Positions 55,753-63,990 of a stretch of DNA of 64,000 nucleotides are shown in pieces. This DNA is from Ostreococcus lucimarinus (Eukaryota). Within the stretch, counting starts at the first letter, position 1; every line of letters starts with the position of its first letter. The stretch is taken from the NCBI GenBank assembly GCA_000092065.1, contig CP000600.1. One strand, written 5' to 3'. A program made the translations under genes and the position numbers. The notes beneath the pieces were generated by a model. The model made no database searches and was not told the DNA's origin. It saw only the letters and a list, made by a program, of their open reading frames with translations.

Positions 55753-55820
55753 CAGCATGTAACACTACTAGTACAGTAAAAGAATGACACTACGTAATGG
55801 TAGGCGCACCACGAAACCAA

Positions 55821-57131
55821 TTAAACCAAGAAGACGGTGTCCTTCAACTTTTGGACCTTGACGGAGAAGTTTTCCGCGTTGTTCAGTCGTTCCATCAAGA
55901 CGTGGCCCATGCACGCGCTCGGCGTGAAGCAACCACCGCTTCCCTCTTTCGCGAAATCCAAACGCGCGCGCTCTTCGGGAATGGCCAGGCAAAGCGCGGC
56001 TTCGCACGCGAGCGCCGCGGTGCCTTTATAACCCGGATCAGCCTTGATGAACTCGAACTCGCAGCAATACGAATCGACCGCCTCGCCCTTTGCGTCTCTA
56101 CCGTTCGCCACGACGTAGACGTGCGAAAATCCGTTCTCGCGCGTATCTTCGCTCGGACCTTCGCCTTGTTTCGGGAGTATCGTCTTTCGCATGAGCCAGC
56201 GCAGCGGAGGCACGACGAACGCCGCGCCGAACGCGCCCAACGTCAACGTGCCGAGAATCGCGTTCTTTTTCGACGCGCACAAATCGGATTCGTCGTACCT
56301 AAAGTTCTTCCCATAGCGCTCCGGATTCAGCGCGTACGACCGCGCGACGACTTTCGCGTTTATCCCCGCCATGATGCTCGGCATCGTCCATCGCTTCGTG
56401 TCCTCGTCGAACGCCCACGTCCCCTGCGGCGACGGCCATCGCTTCGCCGCTTCGACGTCCGGTTTATCCGCCCACCCCCCCGCGCACTTCGCGAAGAAAT
56501 GCGGATCCCCCATCCCGCGCGTCTCGCTCTTCGGCTTCGCCACGACGTTCGCCGCGCTCGCGATCGTCCCTCCCGACACGCCTCCCCTCGATCGTCCCGC
56601 GTGTCCTCTCGCGACGTCGATCTCCGCCGCGCCGCCGCGCTTCATCGTCGCCTCGCTCGCCAACGCCGTTCCCAGATCCCACGGCACGCTATCGTACCCC
56701 ACGCACGACACCAGCGCGCACCCCCTCGCCTTCGCCCTCTCGTGACACGTCTCCACCACGTCCCTGACGAACTGCGGCTCCCCCGTGATGTCGCAGTAAT
56801 CCGTCCCCGCGTCCGCGCAGCTCGCCGCGAGCGCGCGCGCCGCGTCCGCGTCGTACGGCCCCGCGAACGTCAGCACCGTCCGCGCGCGCCGCACCATCGC
56901 CTCGCGACTCGCCGCGTCGCGCGCGACGACGGTCGGGAACGTCACCCCGCGCGCATCGCGCGTCGCGTCCGCGCGCGCGCGTATTTTCGCCGCGTCGCGT
57001 CCCGCGATGGCGATCGACAGGTGCGGGTACTTGCGCGCGAGGTAATCCACCGCGAGCGCGCCCGTGAACCCGTTGGCGCCGTAGACGATCAGGTCGAACT
57101 CGCGCGTCGCGCGCGCCGCGACCGTCGCCAT
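55821..57131 (-). CDS. SCCPDH: Saccharopine dehydrogenase-like oxidoreductase (SCCPDH family)
   Basis: ATG at 57131 (aa 342 of ORF 55821..58154). MATVAARATREFDLIVYGANGFTGALAVDYLARKYPHLSIAIAGRDAAKIRA...LTFAGPYD..ARALAASCADAGTDYCDITGEPQFVRDVVETCHERAKARGCALVSCVGYDSVPWDLG, a Rossmann N-domain plus Sacchrp_dh fold. Confidence 0.75.
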   Translation of the reverse strand: MATVAARATREFDLIVYGANGFTGALAVDYLARKYPHLSIAIAGRDAAKIRARADATRDARGVTFPTVVARDAASREAMVRRARTVLTFAGPYDADAARALAASCADAGTDYCDITGEPQFVRDVVETCHERAKARGCALVSCVGYDSVPWDLGTALASEATMKRGGAAEIDVARGHAGRSRGGVSGGTIASAANVVAKPKSETRGMGDPHFFAKCAGGWADKPDVEAAKRWPSPQGTWAFDEDTKRWTMPSIMAGINAKVVARSYALNPERYGKNFRYDESDLCASKKNAILGTLTLGAFGAAFVVPPLRWLMRKTILPKQGEGPSEDTRENGFSHVYVVANGRDAKGEAVDSYCCEFEFIKADPGYKGTAALACEAALCLAIPEERARLDFAKEGSGGCFTPSACMGHVLMERLNNAENFSVKVQKLKDTVFLV

Positions 57132-57228
57132 CGAACGCGCCCGCGCGCGCGTCGTCGCGCGTCGATGAGTGCCGACGACGACGCACGCGCGGCGTCGCGC
57201 GACATCGCGACGCCGTCGTCGACGCGCG

Positions 57229-58533
57229 ATGGCGTCGAGCTTCGTGCGGCGCGGGCGCAGGTACAGGGACGCGCCCGCGTCGCGCGCGCGCGCGCCCGCG
57301 TCGAATGGCGACGGCGACGACGCGAATCGCGACGGCGACGACGCGAATCGCGACGAAAGGCGCGCGCGCGCGTCGAATCGCGACGGCGACGACGCGAATC
57401 GCGAGGGCGACGACGCGAATCGCGACGGCGCGGGCGTCGCGGGCGCGCGCGCGGGGCCGCACGGGCGCGCGCTCGTCTCGAGCGGGCACGGCGACGCGGA
57501 CGCGCTGCTGGGCGGCGGCCACGCGCTCGGGTCGCTCGCGGCGTGCGCGAGCGACGGCGCGAGCGCGCACGCGGAGGCGCTGTTCGGCGCGTGCTTCGTC
57601 GCGGAGGGCGCGGCGACGGCGCGGCATCGAACGTGCTGGGTGCGCGCGGGACGGGAGGGGCGGGCGGAGGCGACGCGGACGCTGCCGAGACGCGTCGTCG
57701 AGCGAGAGGGGGAGAGCGCGACGACGACGGACGATCGGGCGAGCGAGGCGAGCGAGGCGAGCGATGGGTTGCGAATCGCGTGGCAGTATCGACGATACCT
57801 GAGAGAGGGAAGGAACTTGGACGATTCCGGCGTCGGCGCGGCGCGCGCGACGACGACGGCGAGGACGACGAAGAAACGGAATTTGCGCGCGCCGGACGTG
57901 TGCCAGACGTACGATTGGACGAGGGAGGAGGATGAGGCGACGCTGCGGGACGCGGACGTTTCGTTCGAACGCTTCGGCGGCGATGAGGGCGACGGCGAGG
58001 GCGAGACGGACGCGTGGGCGCGATGTTTTGAGTTCGTGGAGACGTTCGTGCGCGGGTTGAGGGATGAGGAGGTCGGGCGCGTGTTGGTGCAGCCGGAGAC
58101 GCCGCGAGACGAAGGCGAGTGGGCCGCGTGCGCGAGGCTCGCGCGCGCGCTCAAGGGGTTGGTGCGCGAAACGAACGTCGCGTGCGTGATGATTCTTCCT
58201 CTCGCGCTCGCGCCGGCGCGATGGGGCGCGATGATTCGTCACGTCGCGGATTGCGCGATCGACGTGCAGCCGCTCGAAGGTCCGACGAGTGAGATCGAGT
58301 CGCTGTTACCCGAGCCGCACCTGTGCGTCGGGCTCGTCGCCGTTCGCAAACTTCAATTTCAAGGCGGCGTGGTGTCGCCGTTGACGCGCATGGATCGCGT
58401 GTATGCGTTACAGATGCGGAGAAAGCGCATGGCGATCAAACCGCTGCAGATTCGTCCGGAGGAGGAAAGGAAAAAGAGTGGCGGCGAGTCGGCGTGCGGC
58501 GCCGTCGAAGGCGTCGGTCTGGACGACTTTTAG
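57229..58533 (+). CDS. ELP4: Elongator complex protein 4 (ELP4/PAXNEB) with an in-frame 7-aa tandem repeat insertion near the N-terminus
   Basis: ATG at 57229 (the ORF-track start 57169 is GTG). MASSFVRRGRRYRD (human SFQRRGPR), then GRALVSSGHGDADALLGGGHALGS (human [24 protein letters not shown]). RIAWQYRRYLREG (human KIAWRYQLLPK). VACVMILPLALAPARWGAMIRHVADCAIDVQPLEG (human [33 protein letters not shown]). VGLVAVRKLQFQGG...LDDF (human GLIHIRQIPRLN...LDF). DGDDANR x5 encoded by the 21-nt repeat at 57309-57425. Confidence 0.7.
   Translation: MASSFVRRGRRYRDAPASRARAPASNGDGDDANRDGDDANRDERRARASNRDGDDANREGDDANRDGAGVAGARAGPHGRALVSSGHGDADALLGGGHALGSLAACASDGASAHAEALFGACFVAEGAATARHRTCWVRAGREGRAEATRTLPRRVVEREGESATTTDDRASEASEASDGLRIAWQYRRYLREGRNLDDSGVGAARATTTARTTKKRNLRAPDVCQTYDWTREEDEATLRDADVSFERFGGDEGDGEGETDAWARCFEFVETFVRGLRDEEVGRVLVQPETPRDEGEWAACARLARALKGLVRETNVACVMILPLALAPARWGAMIRHVADCAIDVQPLEGPTSEIESLLPEPHLCVGLVAVRKLQFQGGVVSPLTRMDRVYALQMRRKRMAIKPLQIRPEEERKKSGGESACGAVEGVGLDDF
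57309..57425. repeat. 21-nt tandem repeat (cgacggcgacgacgcgaatcg)x5, in-frame within ELP4 exon
   Basis: Seen directly: cgacggcgacgacgcgaatcgcgacggcgacgacgcgaatcgcgacgaaagg...gaatcgcgacggcgacgacgcgaatcgcgagggcgacgacgcgaatcgcgacggcgcg. Confidence 0.85.
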
Positions 58534-58574: not shown

Positions 58575-60722
58575 TTACAGTTTGGCTTCCATGTTCAACG
58601 ACTTGATGGACGAAGGCGTGATCGTCGCTTCCAGAGCGGCGATGATGAAAATATGGGCGACGAGAAACGAGGCGGCTGTCGCTAAACACGCCGCGGCGGT
58701 GTCGAGAACGCTCACGGGCGTCATCCAAAATTGCATGCTGCGGTAAAACGCCGTCATGATGCTCGGTCTAGAATACGTGATCATTCGCACGCTCGACCGT
58801 TTCGTCGTCGCGACTTCGACGATCTGTTCGTCTTCGTCGACTTCGTCTGCTTCTTCTTCGACCATTTCTTCGTCTTGCTCCGTCAAAACTTCCACTTCGT
58901 CGTCGTCATCGTCGTCGTCGATTTCCTCCTCCGACGTGTTCCCACTCGTCGGACTCGGAATATACGTGCGAAGTTCGAAACGCTTGGCGGGGGTAAAGTT
59001 CACCCCTTTCTTTTTCACAGATTTCGCCGCGGCGTGTCTCAGTGCGGATGGCGGCGGATTTTTCAGCGCCGATTGCAGCGCGCTTGCCGGCGACTGTCGT
59101 CGCACCTGCACTTTCGTGGGCGGCGTGACATTCTCCGTCTCTTCGATCGCCTTCGTACCTAAAATATCCAAAAGATACATCCGCGCATCGTCGTCGCAAA
59201 TGTACAGCACGTCGTCTCTGCCACCGTCGAGGAAGAGCTGAATCGTCGCGAATTCCGTCGACGTGATGCCCCACCGCGAGCCACCGTCGAGGATGCTCTC
59301 GTGAATCTCTTTCGCGCATTCCAAATTGATTCGACCGATGCGCTCCATGCAGTCATCTGCAATCTCACACGCCTTTTCGTCGTATCTCTGACGGTCGATG
59401 TAACGATAAAACTTGGGTCGAACGAGTTTCCTAACGTGCGCCAAAACTCCGCCGGCGGCGTTCCCGCGCGCTTCGCTTACAGCCGCGACCCGCTCGATTT
59501 CGGCGTCTTCTCGTTTACTCCGCTCATTCACGACTAAATCTTTGAGATACTTCATCGCCGCGGCGTCTGTGACGTATGAATAGTCAGCGCGACCGCCTTC
59601 GATGATCATCTCAATCGTGCGAAGCTCGATATCAGTGATGCCCCAATGCGAGCCGCCATCTTCGATGCTGGCGTGGATCGCTTTCGCGCACGCCAATCCG
59701 ATCTTGCCTTGAGTTTGCGTCGCGACATCGGCAATGTGACATGCGTTCTCGTCGTACTTGACCCCGTCAATCGTCCTATACTGCGCTTGGCGCGCGAAAT
59801 TACTCAGCCTCTGCAGTGCGGCGGCGACTTTTCGCCGCTTCACCGTCGGCAAGAGTATCTCTGGCCCGAGGCTCTCTTCGTCCGCAATCAACGCGCCCAG
59901 GTGCTTTCGCGCGGCTGCATCGACTTGGAACGTATAATGCCCATCCACGCCACCCTCTACGATCATTCGAAGCGTCTGCAATCCCGCAGGTGTGATTCCA
60001 TACCTCGACCCCGTCGCCTTGACACTCAGCTCCACAGCCCGCGCGCACATTGAATCTACCTTGCCCTTCTTCTTCAAGCTCTCATCCACGATCGCGCACG
60101 CCGCTCGATCATATGACACACCATCGATTACTCTCAACTCCTTCGACGTGCTCCGCGTGGTCGCCAAGGTCACGCGCCGCATCAGACGCTCCGTCACCGT
60201 CAATCGTCTTCGCTTCGCCGCGCGTTCGCCGCGCGGCGACGTCCCGCCCCGTCTCTCTCTCTCCTCCGACGCCGCTTCTTCCCCGTCCTCCACATCGCTC
60301 CCATCCTCAAATCGCGTCGACAAATTCCGTTTCGTGCCGCTCTTTCTCGCGCTACTTCGTTCTCCACCATCCTCGCCTTCGCCGAACGCGCTCGAAATTC
60401 GCGCCGTCAACCACCGCGCGGCGTCGTCCTCCACCTTCACCACGCCTCCAGCGCCCCTTCCGCCACCGTTCGCGATCGCCGTCAGCGTCGCCGCGACATT
60501 CGGTTCGCGGTTCGTTTTCGCGAGCTCCCACAGCGCCTCCGCGCGCTCGAGCGTGAGCGGGGACTTGGTTCTTTTCGATTTTTGTCCCGAAGTCAAGATT
60601 TGTAACAGACTCTGCACGACATCGTCGTTGTATTTCGGCGTCGACGGGCGTCCGCGCGCGGGCGACGCTTTGCGCGCGGGCGAGCGAGGGGTTTTACGCG
60701 TCGTCGGCGCGCGCGCGGGCAT
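58575..60722 (-). CDS. Hypothetical tail-anchored protein with three tandem copies of an unrecognised ~95-aa Cys-containing domain
   Basis: ATG at 60722. Basic N-terminus MPARAPTTRKTPRSPARKASPARGRPSTPK. Three repeats: (1) IDGVSYDRAACAIVDESLKKKGKVDSMCARAVELSVKATGSRYGITPAGLQTLRMIVEGGVDGHYTF; (2) IDGVKYDENACHIADVATQTQGKIGLACAKAIHASIEDGGSHWGITDIELRTIEMIIEGGRADYSY; (3) IDRQRYDEKACEIADDCMERIGRINLECAKEIHESILDGGSRWGITSTEFATIQLFLDGGRDDVLY. Acidic stretch EEEIDDDDDDDEVEV.... C-terminal hydrophobic TM (AAACLATAASFLVAHIFIIAALEA). Confidence 0.55.
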   Translation of the reverse strand: MPARAPTTRKTPRSPARKASPARGRPSTPKYNDDVVQSLLQILTSGQKSKRTKSPLTLERAEALWELAKTNREPNVAATLTAIANGGGRGAGGVVKVEDDAARWLTARISSAFGEGEDGGERSSARKSGTKRNLSTRFEDGSDVEDGEEAASEERERRGGTSPRGERAAKRRRLTVTERLMRRVTLATTRSTSKELRVIDGVSYDRAACAIVDESLKKKGKVDSMCARAVELSVKATGSRYGITPAGLQTLRMIVEGGVDGHYTFQVDAAARKHLGALIADEESLGPEILLPTVKRRKVAAALQRLSNFARQAQYRTIDGVKYDENACHIADVATQTQGKIGLACAKAIHASIEDGGSHWGITDIELRTIEMIIEGGRADYSYVTDAAAMKYLKDLVVNERSKREDAEIERVAAVSEARGNAAGGVLAHVRKLVRPKFYRYIDRQRYDEKACEIADDCMERIGRINLECAKEIHESILDGGSRWGITSTEFATIQLFLDGGRDDVLYICDDDARMYLLDILGTKAIEETENVTPPTKVQVRRQSPASALQSALKNPPPSALRHAAAKSVKKKGVNFTPAKRFELRTYIPSPTSGNTSEEEIDDDDDDDEVEVLTEQDEEMVEEEADEVDEDEQIVEVATTKRSSVRMITYSRPSIMTAFYRSMQFWMTPVSVLDTAAACLATAASFLVAHIFIIAALEATITPSSIKSLNMEAKL

Positions 60723-60880: not shown

Positions 60881-62509
60881 TCAATCCGATGGACGGTGCC
60901 GAGCGCGACGGCGGTTGCTTTTGCGTCGCGCGCGCGCGTCGTCCGTCTTGCGCTCGGCGGCGACTTTTTCGGCGGAGAGCTCGTCTTCGTCCTTCCGGCG
61001 CTTGCGATCGAACGCGTGTCCGAGCGCGCCGTCGTCTAAATCGTTGGAGAGCGTGCTCGACTTATCGCGCGATCTGCACGTCGGGTTGCACATCAGTTCC
61101 CGGCAATCGTCGATGAGACGGATCGGTTTGTTCTCGAACACCCACTCGGCGAGCGCCCTGTGATGGGAGATACCGTCGATGACGATGCCATCGAAATCGG
61201 TGTGCATGTAGCACGACGGCGCGAACACGCCGGCGGTGGCGTGTGACATCGCAGGTTCGAGAACGCGACGCATCTGCGACTGCCATTCGTGCGCGAACGT
61301 GACTTGCTTGTGTCGCGTAAAGTCGCCGCCAAAATTGTCGTGCAACCGCATTACGACGGAATCTAGAAGCGCTTGCGAAAAGAATAAGGGCGTTCGCGTG
61401 TGAGGGAAGGAATAGTCCGCCACCATACATCTCCACGGTGCGTCCTGATTCACCTCGACGCACGCCTTGGGAAGGCTCTCGCTCGCGTGCCAATAGTCTA
61501 CGTACTGCTTGAACGAAGCCTCGTCCCACGGTACGTACTTGAGCGAATCATCGGCGGCGCCCTCCGTATCGTTATGAAAGTAATGAAACCCAGCAAACGG
61601 CGCACCGACGATTTTCACCGTGCTCCGCGCTATGGCGCTGAACTTTGTGCGAAGTAGTTCCGCCCACTGGTCCACTTGCGCGATCAAACCGATCCCCCCC
61701 GCGCTTCGGCCCGCCAAGACGATGACGTCCGCGTCCTCTATGTTGTACGCCCGGACGAGCTCTTGTAAAACAGCCTCGACGATGTGTGCGCCCGAGTGCC
61801 ACATCCCACTCGCATCAGCCTCGTCAGATCGCCCCATGTACACATCACCCGAGCAATACCCCACGGTGACCATGTTGGCTCGCGAAAACGGCAAATCTTC
61901 GCCGTCGTCGTCCGCCGTCACCGCCTGGATGCCTCGATCAAACACGATCTCGTCCGGCAACAGTTCACTCGATCCTCTTTCCGTCCCAGAGCGTTCGGAG
62001 CACTCTGGGGCGTTCGTGCACTCGCCACCGCCTTGCAACATCACGACCCACGTCTTAGACGTCGCGAACTCGCGCGCGCTTCCCGATCCCCCGCTCGAAT
62101 CTCCCGCGCGCGCGACGCTCCCCCGCTTCGCCGACGGATACTCGTCGTCTACGTTTCGCACGCGTATGGGCGCGAGATTGACGTAATACGCCCCAGGAGT
62201 CCCATCCAAGCACCTCGCCTTTGGATATCGCTCCATGTCCAATTCCATCTTCTCCGCCGTCAATCGCCGCACGCCGCTCAACCCCGACGTCGCCTCCCGC
62301 TCGTGATCCCTCGCCGCGTGCCTAACGCTCACGACGTCAAACAACTTATTCCCGATCGACGCGCCCGCCATCACGCACAGCGCCGTGGCCACCGTCAGCA
62401 AACCGACGCCCGCGCCGACGCTCCTCGTCGACGCCGGCTTCAGCGTCCGCGCGCGCGCGCGCTCGCGAATCGCCACCAAGTCGCGCTCCGCGCGCGCGAA
62501 CCGCGACAT
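60881..62509 (-). CDS. Pectin acetylesterase / Notum-family carbohydrate esterase homologue with N-terminal signal anchor
   Basis: First ATG at 62509 (MSRFARAERD...; the ORF-track start 62599 is TTG). TM VGAGVGLLTVATALCVMAGASIG. PAE-family blocks RCLDGTPGAYYV, WVVMLQGGGECTN, GYCSGDVYMG, active-site Ser region VIVLAGRSAGGIGLI. Confidence 0.75.
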   Translation of the reverse strand: MSRFARAERDLVAIRERARARTLKPASTRSVGAGVGLLTVATALCVMAGASIGNKLFDVVSVRHAARDHEREATSGLSGVRRLTAEKMELDMERYPKARCLDGTPGAYYVNLAPIRVRNVDDEYPSAKRGSVARAGDSSGGSGSAREFATSKTWVVMLQGGGECTNAPECSERSGTERGSSELLPDEIVFDRGIQAVTADDDGEDLPFSRANMVTVGYCSGDVYMGRSDEADASGMWHSGAHIVEAVLQELVRAYNIEDADVIVLAGRSAGGIGLIAQVDQWAELLRTKFSAIARSTVKIVGAPFAGFHYFHNDTEGAADDSLKYVPWDEASFKQYVDYWHASESLPKACVEVNQDAPWRCMVADYSFPHTRTPLFFSQALLDSVVMRLHDNFGGDFTRHKQVTFAHEWQSQMRRVLEPAMSHATAGVFAPSCYMHTDFDGIVIDGISHHRALAEWVFENKPIRLIDDCRELMCNPTCRSRDKSSTLSNDLDDGALGHAFDRKRRKDEDELSAEKVAAERKTDDARARRKSNRRRARHRPSD

Positions 62510-62772
62510 CGCGTCGATCGTCGCGTCGCGCGCGCGCGCTCGCGCCCGTTCGCTCGCGCGCGCGCGCGTCCACGAACGATCGTCGTCGCGCAACACCAAA
62601 CTTTAGTGTTGCGCCTTCGCTCGCGCGCGGCGCCGCGCGCGCGTCGACGCGGCGCGTCGCGCGCGACGCGCGCTGACTCGCGCGGCGCTCGCGACGCTCG
62701 CGCGCGGCGTCGGTCGCGCGCGTCGAGACGACGCGTCGCGCACTGGCGTCGCCACTCGCGGTCGCGCGTCGG

Positions 62773-63990
62773 ATGCCGAGCGAATCCTTCGCGAAGCGTT
62801 CGCACCGCGTCGTCGCGTCCTGGATCAAGACCTGCGCGCTCGCGTGCTTCCTGACGATCATGTCCGTCGTCGTCGGCGTCGCGAGCGCGCTCAGGGCGCC
62901 GCGCGTGCTGGACGAGGGGCGAACGCGTCGACCGTGGCGACATCGGCGCGGGATTCGAAGACACGAATTGCGCGCGCGCGTCGAGGCGGCGCGCGTCAGG
63001 GACGAAACGAACGAACAGAAGACGCATTTGTTCGTGTGCGTGCACGGATTGGCGGGAACGCCCGACGATCTGTGCGCGATGGAGGCGAGGTTGTTGTCGC
63101 AGCGAGGGGCGGCGACGCATCGAGTGACGTGCAACGCGCCGTTGAATTCGTTCGATGGCGTCGACGCGGGGGCGCGGAGGATCGTGGAAGAGCTGCGGGA
63201 GGTGAGGAAAAAGTACCCGGGGTTGCGGAGGTTGACGCTGTACGGGAACTCGTTGGGGGGGATTTATGCGAGGTACGTCGCGGGGTTGCTTTACGCGGAA
63301 TCGAAGGATGGAACGATGCTGGACGGGTTGACGCCGTGTACGTTTTTGACGACTGCGACGCCGCATTTGGGGGTGGGGCCGTGGGGGTACTTTAAGATCG
63401 TACCCGAAGGGGCGCGGAACTTGTGGGCACGGAATCTCGGGGCGAGCGTGGAGGAGTTGACGCTTCGAGACGGGCATCGACGCGCGAGCGGGCGGCCGCT
63501 GTTGGCGGACATGGCGGATCCAGAGACGAAGGATCCGGTGGACTTTATCGCCGCTTTAGGGGCGTTCGAGCGACGGTGCGCGTACGCAAACGCTGTGAAC
63601 GACTTTTTGGTGAGCTACGAGACCGCGGCGATTAGTCCGGAATATTTAGATTCCGAAACCGAACGACGATGGCGCACGCTCGAAAAGCCACAAATCGTCG
63701 AGGAGTACGTCGTCGAGGGTTCGCCGATGCCGCCGACGACGACGTCGACGTCGAGAGGGTGGAGAAAGGATAGTCTAGCGCTGCAGCGGCGCATGGCGAG
63801 TGGATTACGAACGTTGACGTGGAAGCACGTCAACGTGGCGTTTCCCGGGCCGACGCCGCTGGCGCACAACAAGATTTGCGCGTTGCAGCGAAGCGAAGTC
63901 ATCGAAAGGCTTTTCAAGGAGGGCGAGTTCATCGTCGATCATCAAGCGAGCTACCTACTCGAACCTCTTCGACGCCAGACTTCGAGTTGA
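62773..63990 (+). CDS. DUF676-type putative serine esterase (lipase-like alpha/beta hydrolase)
   Basis: ATG at 62773. N-terminal TM CALACFLTIMSVVVGVASAL. HLFVCVHGLAGTPDDLCAMEARL...RRLTLYGNSLGGIYARYVAGLL (G-x-S-x-G nucleophile elbow). Stop at 63988-90. Confidence 0.7.
   Translation: MPSESFAKRSHRVVASWIKTCALACFLTIMSVVVGVASALRAPRVLDEGRTRRPWRHRRGIRRHELRARVEAARVRDETNEQKTHLFVCVHGLAGTPDDLCAMEARLLSQRGAATHRVTCNAPLNSFDGVDAGARRIVEELREVRKKYPGLRRLTLYGNSLGGIYARYVAGLLYAESKDGTMLDGLTPCTFLTTATPHLGVGPWGYFKIVPEGARNLWARNLGASVEELTLRDGHRRASGRPLLADMADPETKDPVDFIAALGAFERRCAYANAVNDFLVSYETAAISPEYLDSETERRWRTLEKPQIVEEYVVEGSPMPPTTTSTSRGWRKDSLALQRRMASGLRTLTWKHVNVAFPGPTPLAHNKICALQRSEVIERLFKEGEFIVDHQASYLLEPLRRQTSS

Follow-up and report, generated by a model that had tools for sequence, protein, structure and literature searches.

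A tail-anchored protein of Ostreococcus lucimarinus with repeated copies of an uncurated helical domain, a tentative candidate for an inner nuclear membrane tether

In this work, we ask whether an ORF with internal repeats from Ostreococcus lucimarinus is a genuine gene, what its repeated domain is, and where in the cell its product may act. The analysed window is a stretch of 64,000 nucleotides. A preliminary description, made from its letters alone, had placed the ORF at 58575-60722, and the position proved exact: on the minus strand, a complete, intron-less frame with an ATG start, stop codon included, encodes 715 amino acids. The protein has 22 orthologues, with identities ranging from 39 to 99%, none of which (0/22) features a Pfam domain; start, motifs and membrane anchor are kept down to 39% identity. 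Comparison of the gene with a 91%-identical orthologue gives a dN/dS of 0.28. Many metagenome contigs carry the same gene model with the same adjoining genes, a case of conserved synteny; the gene turns up in 238 index blocks from marine assemblies, the adjoining genes being the same at all six places shown, and related family members were drawn from transcriptome catalogues (MMETSP, MERC). The ORF is a real, conserved green-alga gene under constraint, and its product, a tail-anchored membrane protein restricted to a lineage of small, Mamiellophyceae-like marine green algae, has so far been a "hypothetical protein": no published description of it, or of its repeated domain, was found in the literature.

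Three tandem copies of a domain had been recognized in the preliminary description. They are found at aa 193-284 (repeat 1, 59871..60146), 311-402 (repeat 2, 59517..59792; HMM E-value 5e-50) and 435-525 (repeat 3, 59148..59420), all on the minus strand, as is every feature located below. Pairwise BLASTP gives E-values of 4e-25 for repeats 1 and 2 (43% identity), 2e-16 for repeats 1 and 3 (34%) and 2e-30 for repeats 2 and 3 (48%): judged from sequence comparison, the similarity among these ~92-aa repeats is far above chance and not of the low-complexity type. The count was nonetheless incomplete, as a fourth, degenerate copy, consisting of four helices without a beta-hairpin, lies at aa 33-113 (60384..60626). 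Its orthologue alignment matches the family profile with an hhalign probability of 97.9% (E 5e-13), it gives a weak HMM match in orthologues, and AF2 places its helices at residues 33-44, 58-68, 75-84 and 99-113, with a pLDDT of 64-87 over the block. The copy number is thus 3 + 1, three full and one degenerate; a six-frame HMM search of the 64,000-nt window found no further copies elsewhere in it.

An HMM based only on the three full copies in the window detects their counterparts in each orthologue, with E-values from 1e-19 to 1e-50. Repeat 1 is the most divergent copy, while repeat 3 is the best conserved across species, with 66% within-class identity, and is the one kept in two-repeat orthologues, showing 61% identity to the second repeat of these proteins. 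The three classes are orthologous across species, and the repeats ancient.

As for the signature, cysteine and histidine had been taken as invariant, together with a WGIT and a DGG box, and this does not hold for all copies. Each copy contains two cysteines, the histidine is found in copies 2 and 3 only, and so are the first DGG box and the tryptophan of WGIT, copy 1 reading VELSV and ATGSRYGIT. The expectation of a real folded module, by contrast, is borne out not only by the significance of the repeat comparisons, but also by structure prediction: AF2 models the single unit, represented by repeat 2, with a pLDDT of 87.4 and a pTM of 0.78, as a beta-hairpin (YRTIDGVKYD) followed by four helices. 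The domain, of ~90 aa, is accordingly predicted to combine a beta-hairpin of pattern Y[RK]xIDGxxYD with a four-helix bundle. In the full-length model, the units are arranged as beads on a string, with disordered segments at 116-178 and 523-656 and a terminal helix; the copies have pI values of 4.7-6.7, the linkers of 10-12.

The domain could not be placed in any known family in the preliminary description, and database searches agree. No Pfam-A or NCBIfam match at the curated threshold was found for the whole protein, nor for its parts (each repeat, the degenerate N-terminal copy, the C-terminal motif region and the anchor); repeats, motif region and anchor have no match even at E-values up to 10. 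The whole protein gives only noise far under the cut-off (VEFS-Box, E 0.35; IF-5A, E 0.011), and the N-terminal copy only EcsC, at E 0.05, below threshold. Solved structures in the PDB offered no sequence-profile or fold match, the modelled unit has no specific structural neighbour, and scanning of about 70 relatives revealed no catalogued family covering the domain.

The domain is not private to the 715-aa protein, and belongs to a wider unnamed family. An exhaustive profile search of 1.84 billion proteins identified ~77 credible clusters (50% identity), all unnamed, distributed over green algae, further marine protists and a small number of bacteria. The window's three copies were used in building the search profile, so that their own match to it is circular; independent relatives are recovered down to an E-value of 1e-3. 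A word-indexed search with a broad profile returned 17 short unnamed marine fragments and nothing else. The family core, Y[RK]xIxGxxYD ... DGxG[VI]TxxExxT[LI] ... A, extends over about 90 positions. The cysteine and histidine columns are lineage-specific, being occupied by Leu, Asp or Glu, or variable, in relatives. Single-copy versions, which the preliminary description had proposed to seek, do occur in the family beside multi-copy ones. The family is genuinely uncurated and without a solved neighbour; now that it is delimited, and has a confident predicted fold, it merits both a database entry and a structure.

Relatives carry the domain in varied contexts. A SAP domain lies directly upstream of it in four proteins, an HMG-box accompanies it in a cluster of 79 members, and a PHD is found in some relatives. 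In a single transcript, P0110, the domain lies N-terminal to a transmembrane segment and a Sad1/UNC (SUN) domain, a position that faces the nucleoplasm in canonical inner-membrane proteins; a large protein search for other SUN fusions returned only the P0110 query, and the transcript could be mis-assembled. Other partners are organellar ribosomal protein L27 (P0097 and P0106, organellar-type L27 with a presequence), EF-hands with CCCH, DeoC, kinase, LRR and VWA. Some relatives feature a weak CAAD-type membrane anchor. Bacterial loci, in Myxococcales, Nannocystaceae and Bacteroidales MAGs, share no neighbour, the adjacent genes (formate-THF ligase, AAA ATPase, thioesterase, succinyl-CoA ligase, MnmE) being unrelated housekeeping ones. 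Since non-nuclear partners and bacteria are represented too, the domain is a general module rather than a nuclear marker.

The basic N-terminus, the acidic stretch and the C-terminal membrane anchor noted at the outset were all confirmed. The N-terminus (aa 1-29, 60636..60722) has a pI of 12, no acidic residues and SPAR/SPAR/TPK motifs; it might act as an NLS, a DNA-binding tail or a set of CDK sites. Its start, MP[AP]R, is common to the orthologues and to a paralogous family B. A first linear motif, TKRNLSxRF (aa 130-138, 60309..60335), lies within a disordered segment of pLDDT below 50, and 15 orthologues show no variation at its K131, R132, N133, L134, S135, R137 or F138. Two basic clusters follow. 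KRR[KR]LT (aa 170-175, 60198..60215), with K170, R171, L174 and T175 invariant and R172 at least 90% conserved, is monopartite NLS-like, fits the pattern K[KR]x[KR] and is a putative NLS; KRRK (aa 295-298, 59829..59840), with R297 invariant and K295 and R296 at least 90% conserved, falls in the linker between repeats 1 and 2, whose pI is 11.7.

Downstream of repeat 3, a disordered region (aa 533-591, 58950..59126; pLDDT below 50) contains the motifs TPPxxVxV, PASxLxSALK and KKKGVxFTPxxRFxxRTYxPSP, with many invariant columns. Within it, KKKGVNFTP (aa 570-578, 58989..59015) fits by regular expression the RVxF-type pattern [KR]-x(0,1)-[VI]-{P}-[FW]; no variation is seen at G573, V574, F576, T577 or P578, conservation is at least 90% at K571 and K572, and docking of PP1 at this site may be speculated. 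The acidic low-complexity stretch (aa 596-640, 58803..58937; net charge -26) is kept by orthologues in position and not in sequence. A weak 21-bp periodicity was detected by TRF in the DNA encoding it, at 58814-58876.

A juxtamembrane helix, predicted by AF2 at aa 644-667 (58722..58793), ends with FWM, which opens the conserved motif FWMTPVSxxDTAAAC; this continues over aa 668-679 and, in the alignment of C-termini, is common to family B. The paralogous anchored family (P0072, P0075, P0086, P0089, P0090, P0093) likewise has a PVS..D.AAA membrane motif. The single C-terminal transmembrane helix (aa 672-697, 58632..58709; 672-701 in the AF2 model) reaches 2.28 in its top 19-residue Kyte-Doolittle window, at aa 679, and is conserved in all orthologues. 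It is the lone strongly hydrophobic segment and ends 18 residues before the C-terminus, inside the limit of ~30 for this class; the N-terminus is basic and hydrophilic, with no signal peptide, and no other 19-residue window exceeds 1.7: these are the features of a tail-anchored protein. Some 670 residues would thus lie on the cytosolic or nucleoplasmic side, with the domain copies strung on basic disordered linkers. The short lumenal tail (aa 698-715, 58578..58631), EATITPSSIKSLNMEAKL, is 18 aa long; across orthologues it ranges from 8 to 28 aa, its last residue being L, M, T, V, N or I (endings such as ...EAKL, ...ETSM, ...RNPT, ...PAQV and ...DELI in the C-terminal alignment).

On these grounds we tentatively favour the reading that the protein is an NLS-bearing, tail-anchored component of the inner nuclear membrane, and that its acidic helical modules may bind nuclear partners. 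The C-terminal helix, itself plainly present, would be put into the ER post-translationally. The KRRK-type clusters and the ~130-aa disordered spacer, equally part of the observed anatomy, would then allow the protein to reach the inner nuclear membrane by way of the pore membrane. There, we infer, the neutral-to-acidic helical modules would serve as multivalent protein-binding units, while the basic linkers would contact DNA, both retaining the protein and tethering chromatin to the envelope; TKRNLSxRF, KKKGVxFTP and the S/TP sites, observed as conserved motifs, are likely docking or phosphorylation sites that might regulate the tether. Reporters combining an NLS, a disordered region and a tail anchor (Groves et al. 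2019, reviewed in PMC7746247) have shown this architecture to be sufficient for inner-nuclear-membrane targeting in plants. The near-invariant basic clusters, the disordered spacer and the relatives with SAP, HMG-box, PHD and SUN count in favour of such a location; the NLS assignment, being made from simple patterns, counts against it, as do the basic, acid-free N-terminus, which could be an organellar presequence, and a cytosolic part of ~74 kDa, large for passage to the inner membrane.

A tether of this kind would be of interest in these organisms. Among nine plant nuclear-envelope families, only SUN was found in Ostreococcus (PMC7746247), and ultrasmall green algae possess few recognisable envelope proteins (PMC9871001), those of the Ostreococcus and Micromonas type having almost none beyond nucleoporins and SUN (PMC7746247, PMC9871001). 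A conserved tail-anchored protein with NLS-like clusters and multivalent helical modules is a concrete candidate for attaching chromatin to the envelope in small green algae, testable in a transformable alga.

A broader version of this reading, which we regard as doubtful, would make the domain the partner-binding head of a set of membrane-to-genome tethers, ancient and not recognised before, that algae share with other protists. In this equally doubtful extension, the set would be tail-anchored or SUN-linked at the inner nuclear membrane, would combine anchor, coiled coil and SAP elsewhere, and would have bacterial antecedents. If so, it would fill the LEM/HeH-lamin role in lineages without those systems. 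LEM and HeH proteins of the inner nuclear membrane, such as emerin, LAP2beta and yeast Heh1/Heh2, carry small helical nucleoplasmic modules towards the N-terminus, NLS-like clusters, an extended disordered spacer and an anchor located at the C-terminus or close to it. The window protein resembles them in its helical modules, basic clusters, disordered spacer, C-terminal anchor and proposed chromatin tethering, as a functional analogy only: Pfam scans found neither LEM (PF03020) nor HeH in it, SAP occurs only in distant relatives, and the module here, of ~90 aa, is acidic, is made of a hairpin and four helices, and is present in 3 + 1 copies. NEAPs, to our knowledge restricted to seed plants, share with it, as the plant reporters do, an NLS, a spacer and a C-terminal anchor; they are, however, coiled-coil proteins, whereas the window protein consists of globular helical repeats, with no sequence similarity detected between the two.

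Alternatively, the protein may be a tail-anchored scaffold that faces the cytosol from the ER, the outer nuclear membrane or some other endomembrane; its modules would then recruit cytosolic partners, and the basic clusters would not be import signals. The tail-anchor topology itself is compatible with such a location, as are the size of the cytosolic portion and the promiscuity of the domain, found in non-nuclear contexts (EF-hand/CCCH, DeoC, kinase, LRR, bacterial). Yet the two KRRK-type clusters and the long disordered spacer fit the plant inner-membrane rule (PMC7746247), and SAP, HMG, PHD and SUN co-occur in relatives. The window protein resembles outer-membrane KASH proteins in having a short lumenal tail after a C-terminal transmembrane helix; however, it and its orthologues lack a conserved PPPX (animals) or xVPT (plants) ending, and tail length varies. 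The C-terminal tail alignment therefore rules out a KASH identity, and a role as outer-membrane partner of SUN is not supported. Should the protein be an ordinary ER scaffold, the domain definition alone would be of lasting value.

An organellar location is unlikely. In that case the protein would be a plastid or mitochondrial membrane-to-nucleoid anchor comparable in function to PEND or MFP1, with a transit peptide at its N-terminus, a helix lodged in the envelope or thylakoid, and linkers that bind organellar DNA. PEND is acidic in character and has internal repeats, a basic N-terminus and a hydrophobic anchor at its C-terminus, whereas MFP1 has an anchor, a coiled coil and a C-terminal DNA-binding end. 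The latter layout is mimicked by the SAP-containing relatives P0074, P0077 and P0091; MFP1-like relatives, in which SAP and a long coiled coil accompany a weak CAAD-like anchor, would suit an organellar role, as would the fusion to presequence-bearing L27 and the first ~30 residues of the window protein and its orthologues, acid-free and rich in A, R, S, T and P. The CAAD matches, however, reach only 16.8-22.7 bits, against a Pfam threshold of 30.7, and the membrane motif is common to membrane-anchored paralogues. Soluble relatives with the same N-terminal layout, starting with MP[AP]R, such as P0078, have their folded domain starting near residue 13, and the SUN fusion at residue 1, which leaves no room for an organellar presequence. 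Unlike PEND, the window protein has an anchor without a bZIP or other PEND feature (Pfam scans), and the domain of its relatives begins at residues 1-13. PEND and MFP1 are membrane-anchored nucleoid tethers, which favours the comparison, but they are land-plant families (PMC4154389).

That the repeat is a metal or calcium module, either a Cys/His site or a degenerate EF-hand pair, making the protein a membrane-bound ion sensor or buffer, is highly improbable. Two cysteines per copy and a histidine in copies 2 and 3 might suggest a metal site, which is ruled out by the lack of conservation of these columns across the family. Several relatives bear true EF-hands as well, and the wider family has short DG-x-I-S-x-x-E strings resembling the end of an EF-hand loop and its exiting helix, with faint EF-hand and SHOCT-like matches in the distant relatives P0080 and P0102. 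Even this string is absent from the window copies, however, and the canonical Ca-loop ligand positions, read from the sequence, are not oxygen donors. EF-hand ancestry is largely refuted, as the family profile compared with an EF-hand-pair alignment gives an hhalign probability of 0.6% over 12 columns, with no structural match and no EF-hand Pfam match in the window protein. Finally, the reading of the ORF as non-functional, a chance frame or a decaying repeat, deserves practically no credence: many long spurious overlapping ORFs do arise in the GC-rich DNA of this region, but the conservation, selective constraint, shared neighbourhood and transcribed relatives reported above, together with the confident predicted fold, refute it for practical purposes.

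The ORF at 58575-60722 on the minus strand runs uninterrupted from ATG to stop and encodes a protein of 715 aa. Among 5.8 billion proteins searched, 22 relatives were found, with 39-99% identity and 54-100% query coverage, all unnamed or annotated as "hypothetical", and no Pfam domain was found in any of them. Orthologues can be aligned over the full length: the start, MP[AP]R, and the repeats are conserved, as are the membrane segment (FWMTPVSxxDTAAAC...) and a series of invariant linear motifs: TKRNLSxRF, KRR[KR]LT, LGPE...KRR, TPPxxVxV, PASxLxSALK and KKKGVxFTPxxRFxxRTYxPSP. Marine metagenomes also carry the gene on numerous contigs (238 index blocks), where a pectin-acetylesterase-like gene, PAXNEB/Elp4, a saccharopine-dehydrogenase-like gene and peptidase C1 recur as neighbors, and synteny is kept around a 58%-identical orthologue. 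The idea that this frame is not a gene is refuted by the orthologues, by their conserved full-length alignment and by a dN/dS of 0.28 against a 91%-identical orthologue.

Self-comparison of the protein defines three units, R1, R2 and R3, at aa 193-284, 311-402 and 435-525, confirming the triplication noticed in the preliminary description. Repeat-versus-repeat BLASTP gives E values of 4e-25, 2e-16 and 2e-30, with 34-48% identity across 82-92 residues: this similarity is well above chance and not compositional. The count of three is right for full units, but a fourth, degenerate copy lies at aa 33-113: in a profile-profile comparison, aa ~54-112 match the domain's final three helices (probability 97.9%, E 5e-13), so that the protein has 3 + 1 copies. 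Similarly, the boxes described as invariant hold in part, since copy 1 lacks the His, the WGIT Trp and the first DGG that copies 2 and 3 have. Across species, identity is 56-66% within the R1, R2 and R3 classes and 32-43% between them; each repeat is orthologous between species, which makes the triplication old. Orthologues with two repeats retain one R1-like and one R3-like unit.

The flanking features were also correctly recognized: a basic N-terminus (aa 1-29, pI 12, no acidic residues), an acidic stretch (aa 596-640, net charge -26) and, 18 residues before the C-terminus, the sole strongly hydrophobic segment (aa 672-697), giving the protein a tail-anchor topology. Domain copies are neutral to acidic (pI 4.7-6.7) and linkers strongly basic (pI 10-12); the orthologue alignment contains two invariant K-R-R-K-type clusters.

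An AlphaFold2 model of a single unit, built on an alignment of 21 units, is confident (mean pLDDT 87.4, pTM 0.78) and predicts four helices after a beta-hairpin (YRxIDGxxYD). Modelled at full length (mean pLDDT 60), the protein resembles beads on a string: four helices within aa 33-113, the three repeat units (block pLDDT mostly 74-90), disorder at 116-178 and 523-656, with a spacer of ~130 aa preceding the membrane anchor, a juxtamembrane helix at 644-667 and a terminal helix at 672-701. Neither the whole protein nor any of its pieces matched Pfam-A (2025 copy) or NCBIfam 20; single-sequence and profile queries found nothing among PDB sequences, and Foldseek gave no match below E 0.5 in PDB and BFVD. 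Against these collections, the central claim of a real but unrecognized folded module stands.

The module is part of a wider family that is rare and unnamed. When 1.84 billion cluster representatives were searched exhaustively with an HMMER profile (E cut-off 1e-3), 79 proteins were selected, 32 of them at E <= 1e-10; two, P0118 and P0142, look spurious. Alignment of 38 diverse units (A3) yields the core Y[RK]xIxGxxYD ... L..A ... G.I....A ... DGxG[VI]TxxExxT[LI] ... A..[FYW]L. A "GG" flavor (I.eGG..g.Y) is found in green-algal-looking proteins, including the present one, and a shorter "KFT" flavor in sequences from other marine eukaryotes and from bacteria. The bacterial occurrences are genuine and include Myxococcales MCB9748839.1, on a 1.4 Mb contig, Saprospiraceae HMO40797.1, and loci in Nannocystaceae and Bacteroidales MAGs. 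MAGs of Myxococcales, Nannocystaceae and Bacteroidales encode stand-alone two-copy proteins of 175 aa (L009 5001-5525; L010-L014), the genes for which adjoin unrelated housekeeping genes. All named members are "hypothetical protein", and no paper containing the motif strings was found in the searchable literature; the domain deserves curation.

Pfam scans of ~70 relatives revealed diverse partner domains, among which those of DNA or chromatin type (SAP, HMG, PHD) and a SUN fusion stand out. Very long coiled-coil proteins (P0074, P0077, P0091, P0087) end in SAP and, directly after it, two domain copies; they also feature a weak, sub-threshold CAAD-like N-terminal anchor. In the first three (1500-1700 aa) this two-helix anchor is followed by ~1200 aa of coiled coil and by the C-terminal SAP and two domain copies, a layout reminiscent of MFP1-type membrane-DNA tethers. 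An HMG-box precedes three copies in P0109 (a cluster of 79 sequences), and PHD is found in one member (E 2.4e-6). P0110 carries the domain at 1-92, a TM at ~157 and Sad1/UNC (SUN) at 278-403 (30.4 bits, cut-off 22); in canonical SUN proteins the portion N-terminal to the membrane is nucleoplasmic. This fusion is known from one MMETSP transcript, for which a protein search detected no relatives, and is therefore of limited weight.

EF-hands and a CCCH finger occur in P0076 and P0111, and EF-hands also in 3 of 49 members of another Pfam scan. With P0130, P0138 and P0141, likewise from other marine eukaryotes, these two show a recurrent architecture in which 2-5 domain copies are combined with a coiled coil, a CCCH zinc finger, a conserved C-terminal region and, in most cases, two pairs of EF-hands. 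In P0097 and P0106 one copy forms a C-terminal extension of organellar-type ribosomal protein L27, an unusual ribosomal-protein fusion. DeoC aldolase, protein kinase, DUF4116, LRR and VWA complete the set, whose diversity indicates that the domain is portable and serves in several compartments. A second anchored family (P0072, P0075, P0086, P0089, P0090, P0093, P0129) combines 1-2 N-terminal copies with a long disordered region and the motif SPNTWLRRR; its C-terminal membrane helix opens, like that of the window protein, with PVS..(D).AAA, and a conserved helix follows it on the lumenal side.

The window protein is tail-anchored, carries repeated interaction modules and may be an envelope tether. 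We tentatively propose that it links the envelope to chromatin at the inner nuclear membrane, a reading we consider plausible, if somewhat short of probable. The protein would be inserted post-translationally into the ER; NLS and spacer would then assist passage to the inner nuclear membrane, where helical modules binding nuclear proteins and basic linkers touching DNA would retain it, under regulation through conserved short motifs (S/TP sites and the RVxF-like KKKGVxFTP). An NLS, a disordered region and a tail anchor suffice for such targeting in plants (PMC7746247). These algae have no recognizable lamina, LEM, NEAP or KASH proteins (PMC7746247; PMC9871001), and would, if the proposal is true, gain an envelope-chromatin tether; a testable hypothesis for the cellular place of the protein is thereby added.

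A cytosol-facing scaffold on the ER or outer membrane agrees with the tail-anchor topology and with domain promiscuity, but leaves the invariant basic clusters unexplained, and we regard it as somewhat less likely. The lumenal tail lacks conservation, so a KASH role is unsupported. A plastid membrane-nucleoid anchor of the PEND or MFP1 type (PMC4154389) would suit the acid-free N-terminus and the L27-fused and CAAD-like relatives; it is improbable, however, as PEND features are all absent and soluble relatives starting with MP[AP]R, such as P0078, can begin their folded domain already at residue 13, too early for an organellar presequence to fit in front of it. A metal- or Ca-binding module is essentially refuted. 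Cys and His, which the preliminary description counted among the invariant residues, are not the family signature: outside the window copies, their positions in A3 vary or are taken by Leu, Asp or Glu. They are lineage-specific and not ligands.

KKKGVNFTP (58989-59015, aa 570-578), invariant or nearly so across all orthologues, matches the RVxF-type pattern for phosphatase-1 docking, [KR]-x(0,1)-[VI]-{P}-[FW], and lies in a disordered segment, with S/TP sites adjoining. TKRNLSxRF (60309-60335, aa 130-138), invariant in 15 orthologues within disordered, poorly conserved surroundings, includes an RxL-like string.

GC content is 58-71% and intergenic gaps measure 40-160 bp, values that, together with the marine provenance of the sequences, tentatively point to a Mamiellophyceae-like picoalga. 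At 55800-58250 and 61000-62900, where GC reaches 71%, many long ORFs overlap on both strands (e.g. 712, 777 and 517 aa), Arg/Ala-rich and evidently spurious; ORF length by itself is no evidence of a gene here. Between the divergent saccharopine-dehydrogenase-like and PAXNEB/Elp4 genes, 57288-57430 holds 1.9 copies of a 72-bp unit (95% match), composed of 21-bp units (CGAATCGCGACGGCGACGACG); one frame reads GDGDDANRD repeats, at the beginning of the long PAXNEB ORF. Imperfect CG-dinucleotide runs (62522-62722; TRF, 23 and 51 copies, 67-73% match) are found at the 5' end of the pectin-acetylesterase-like gene and upstream of it.
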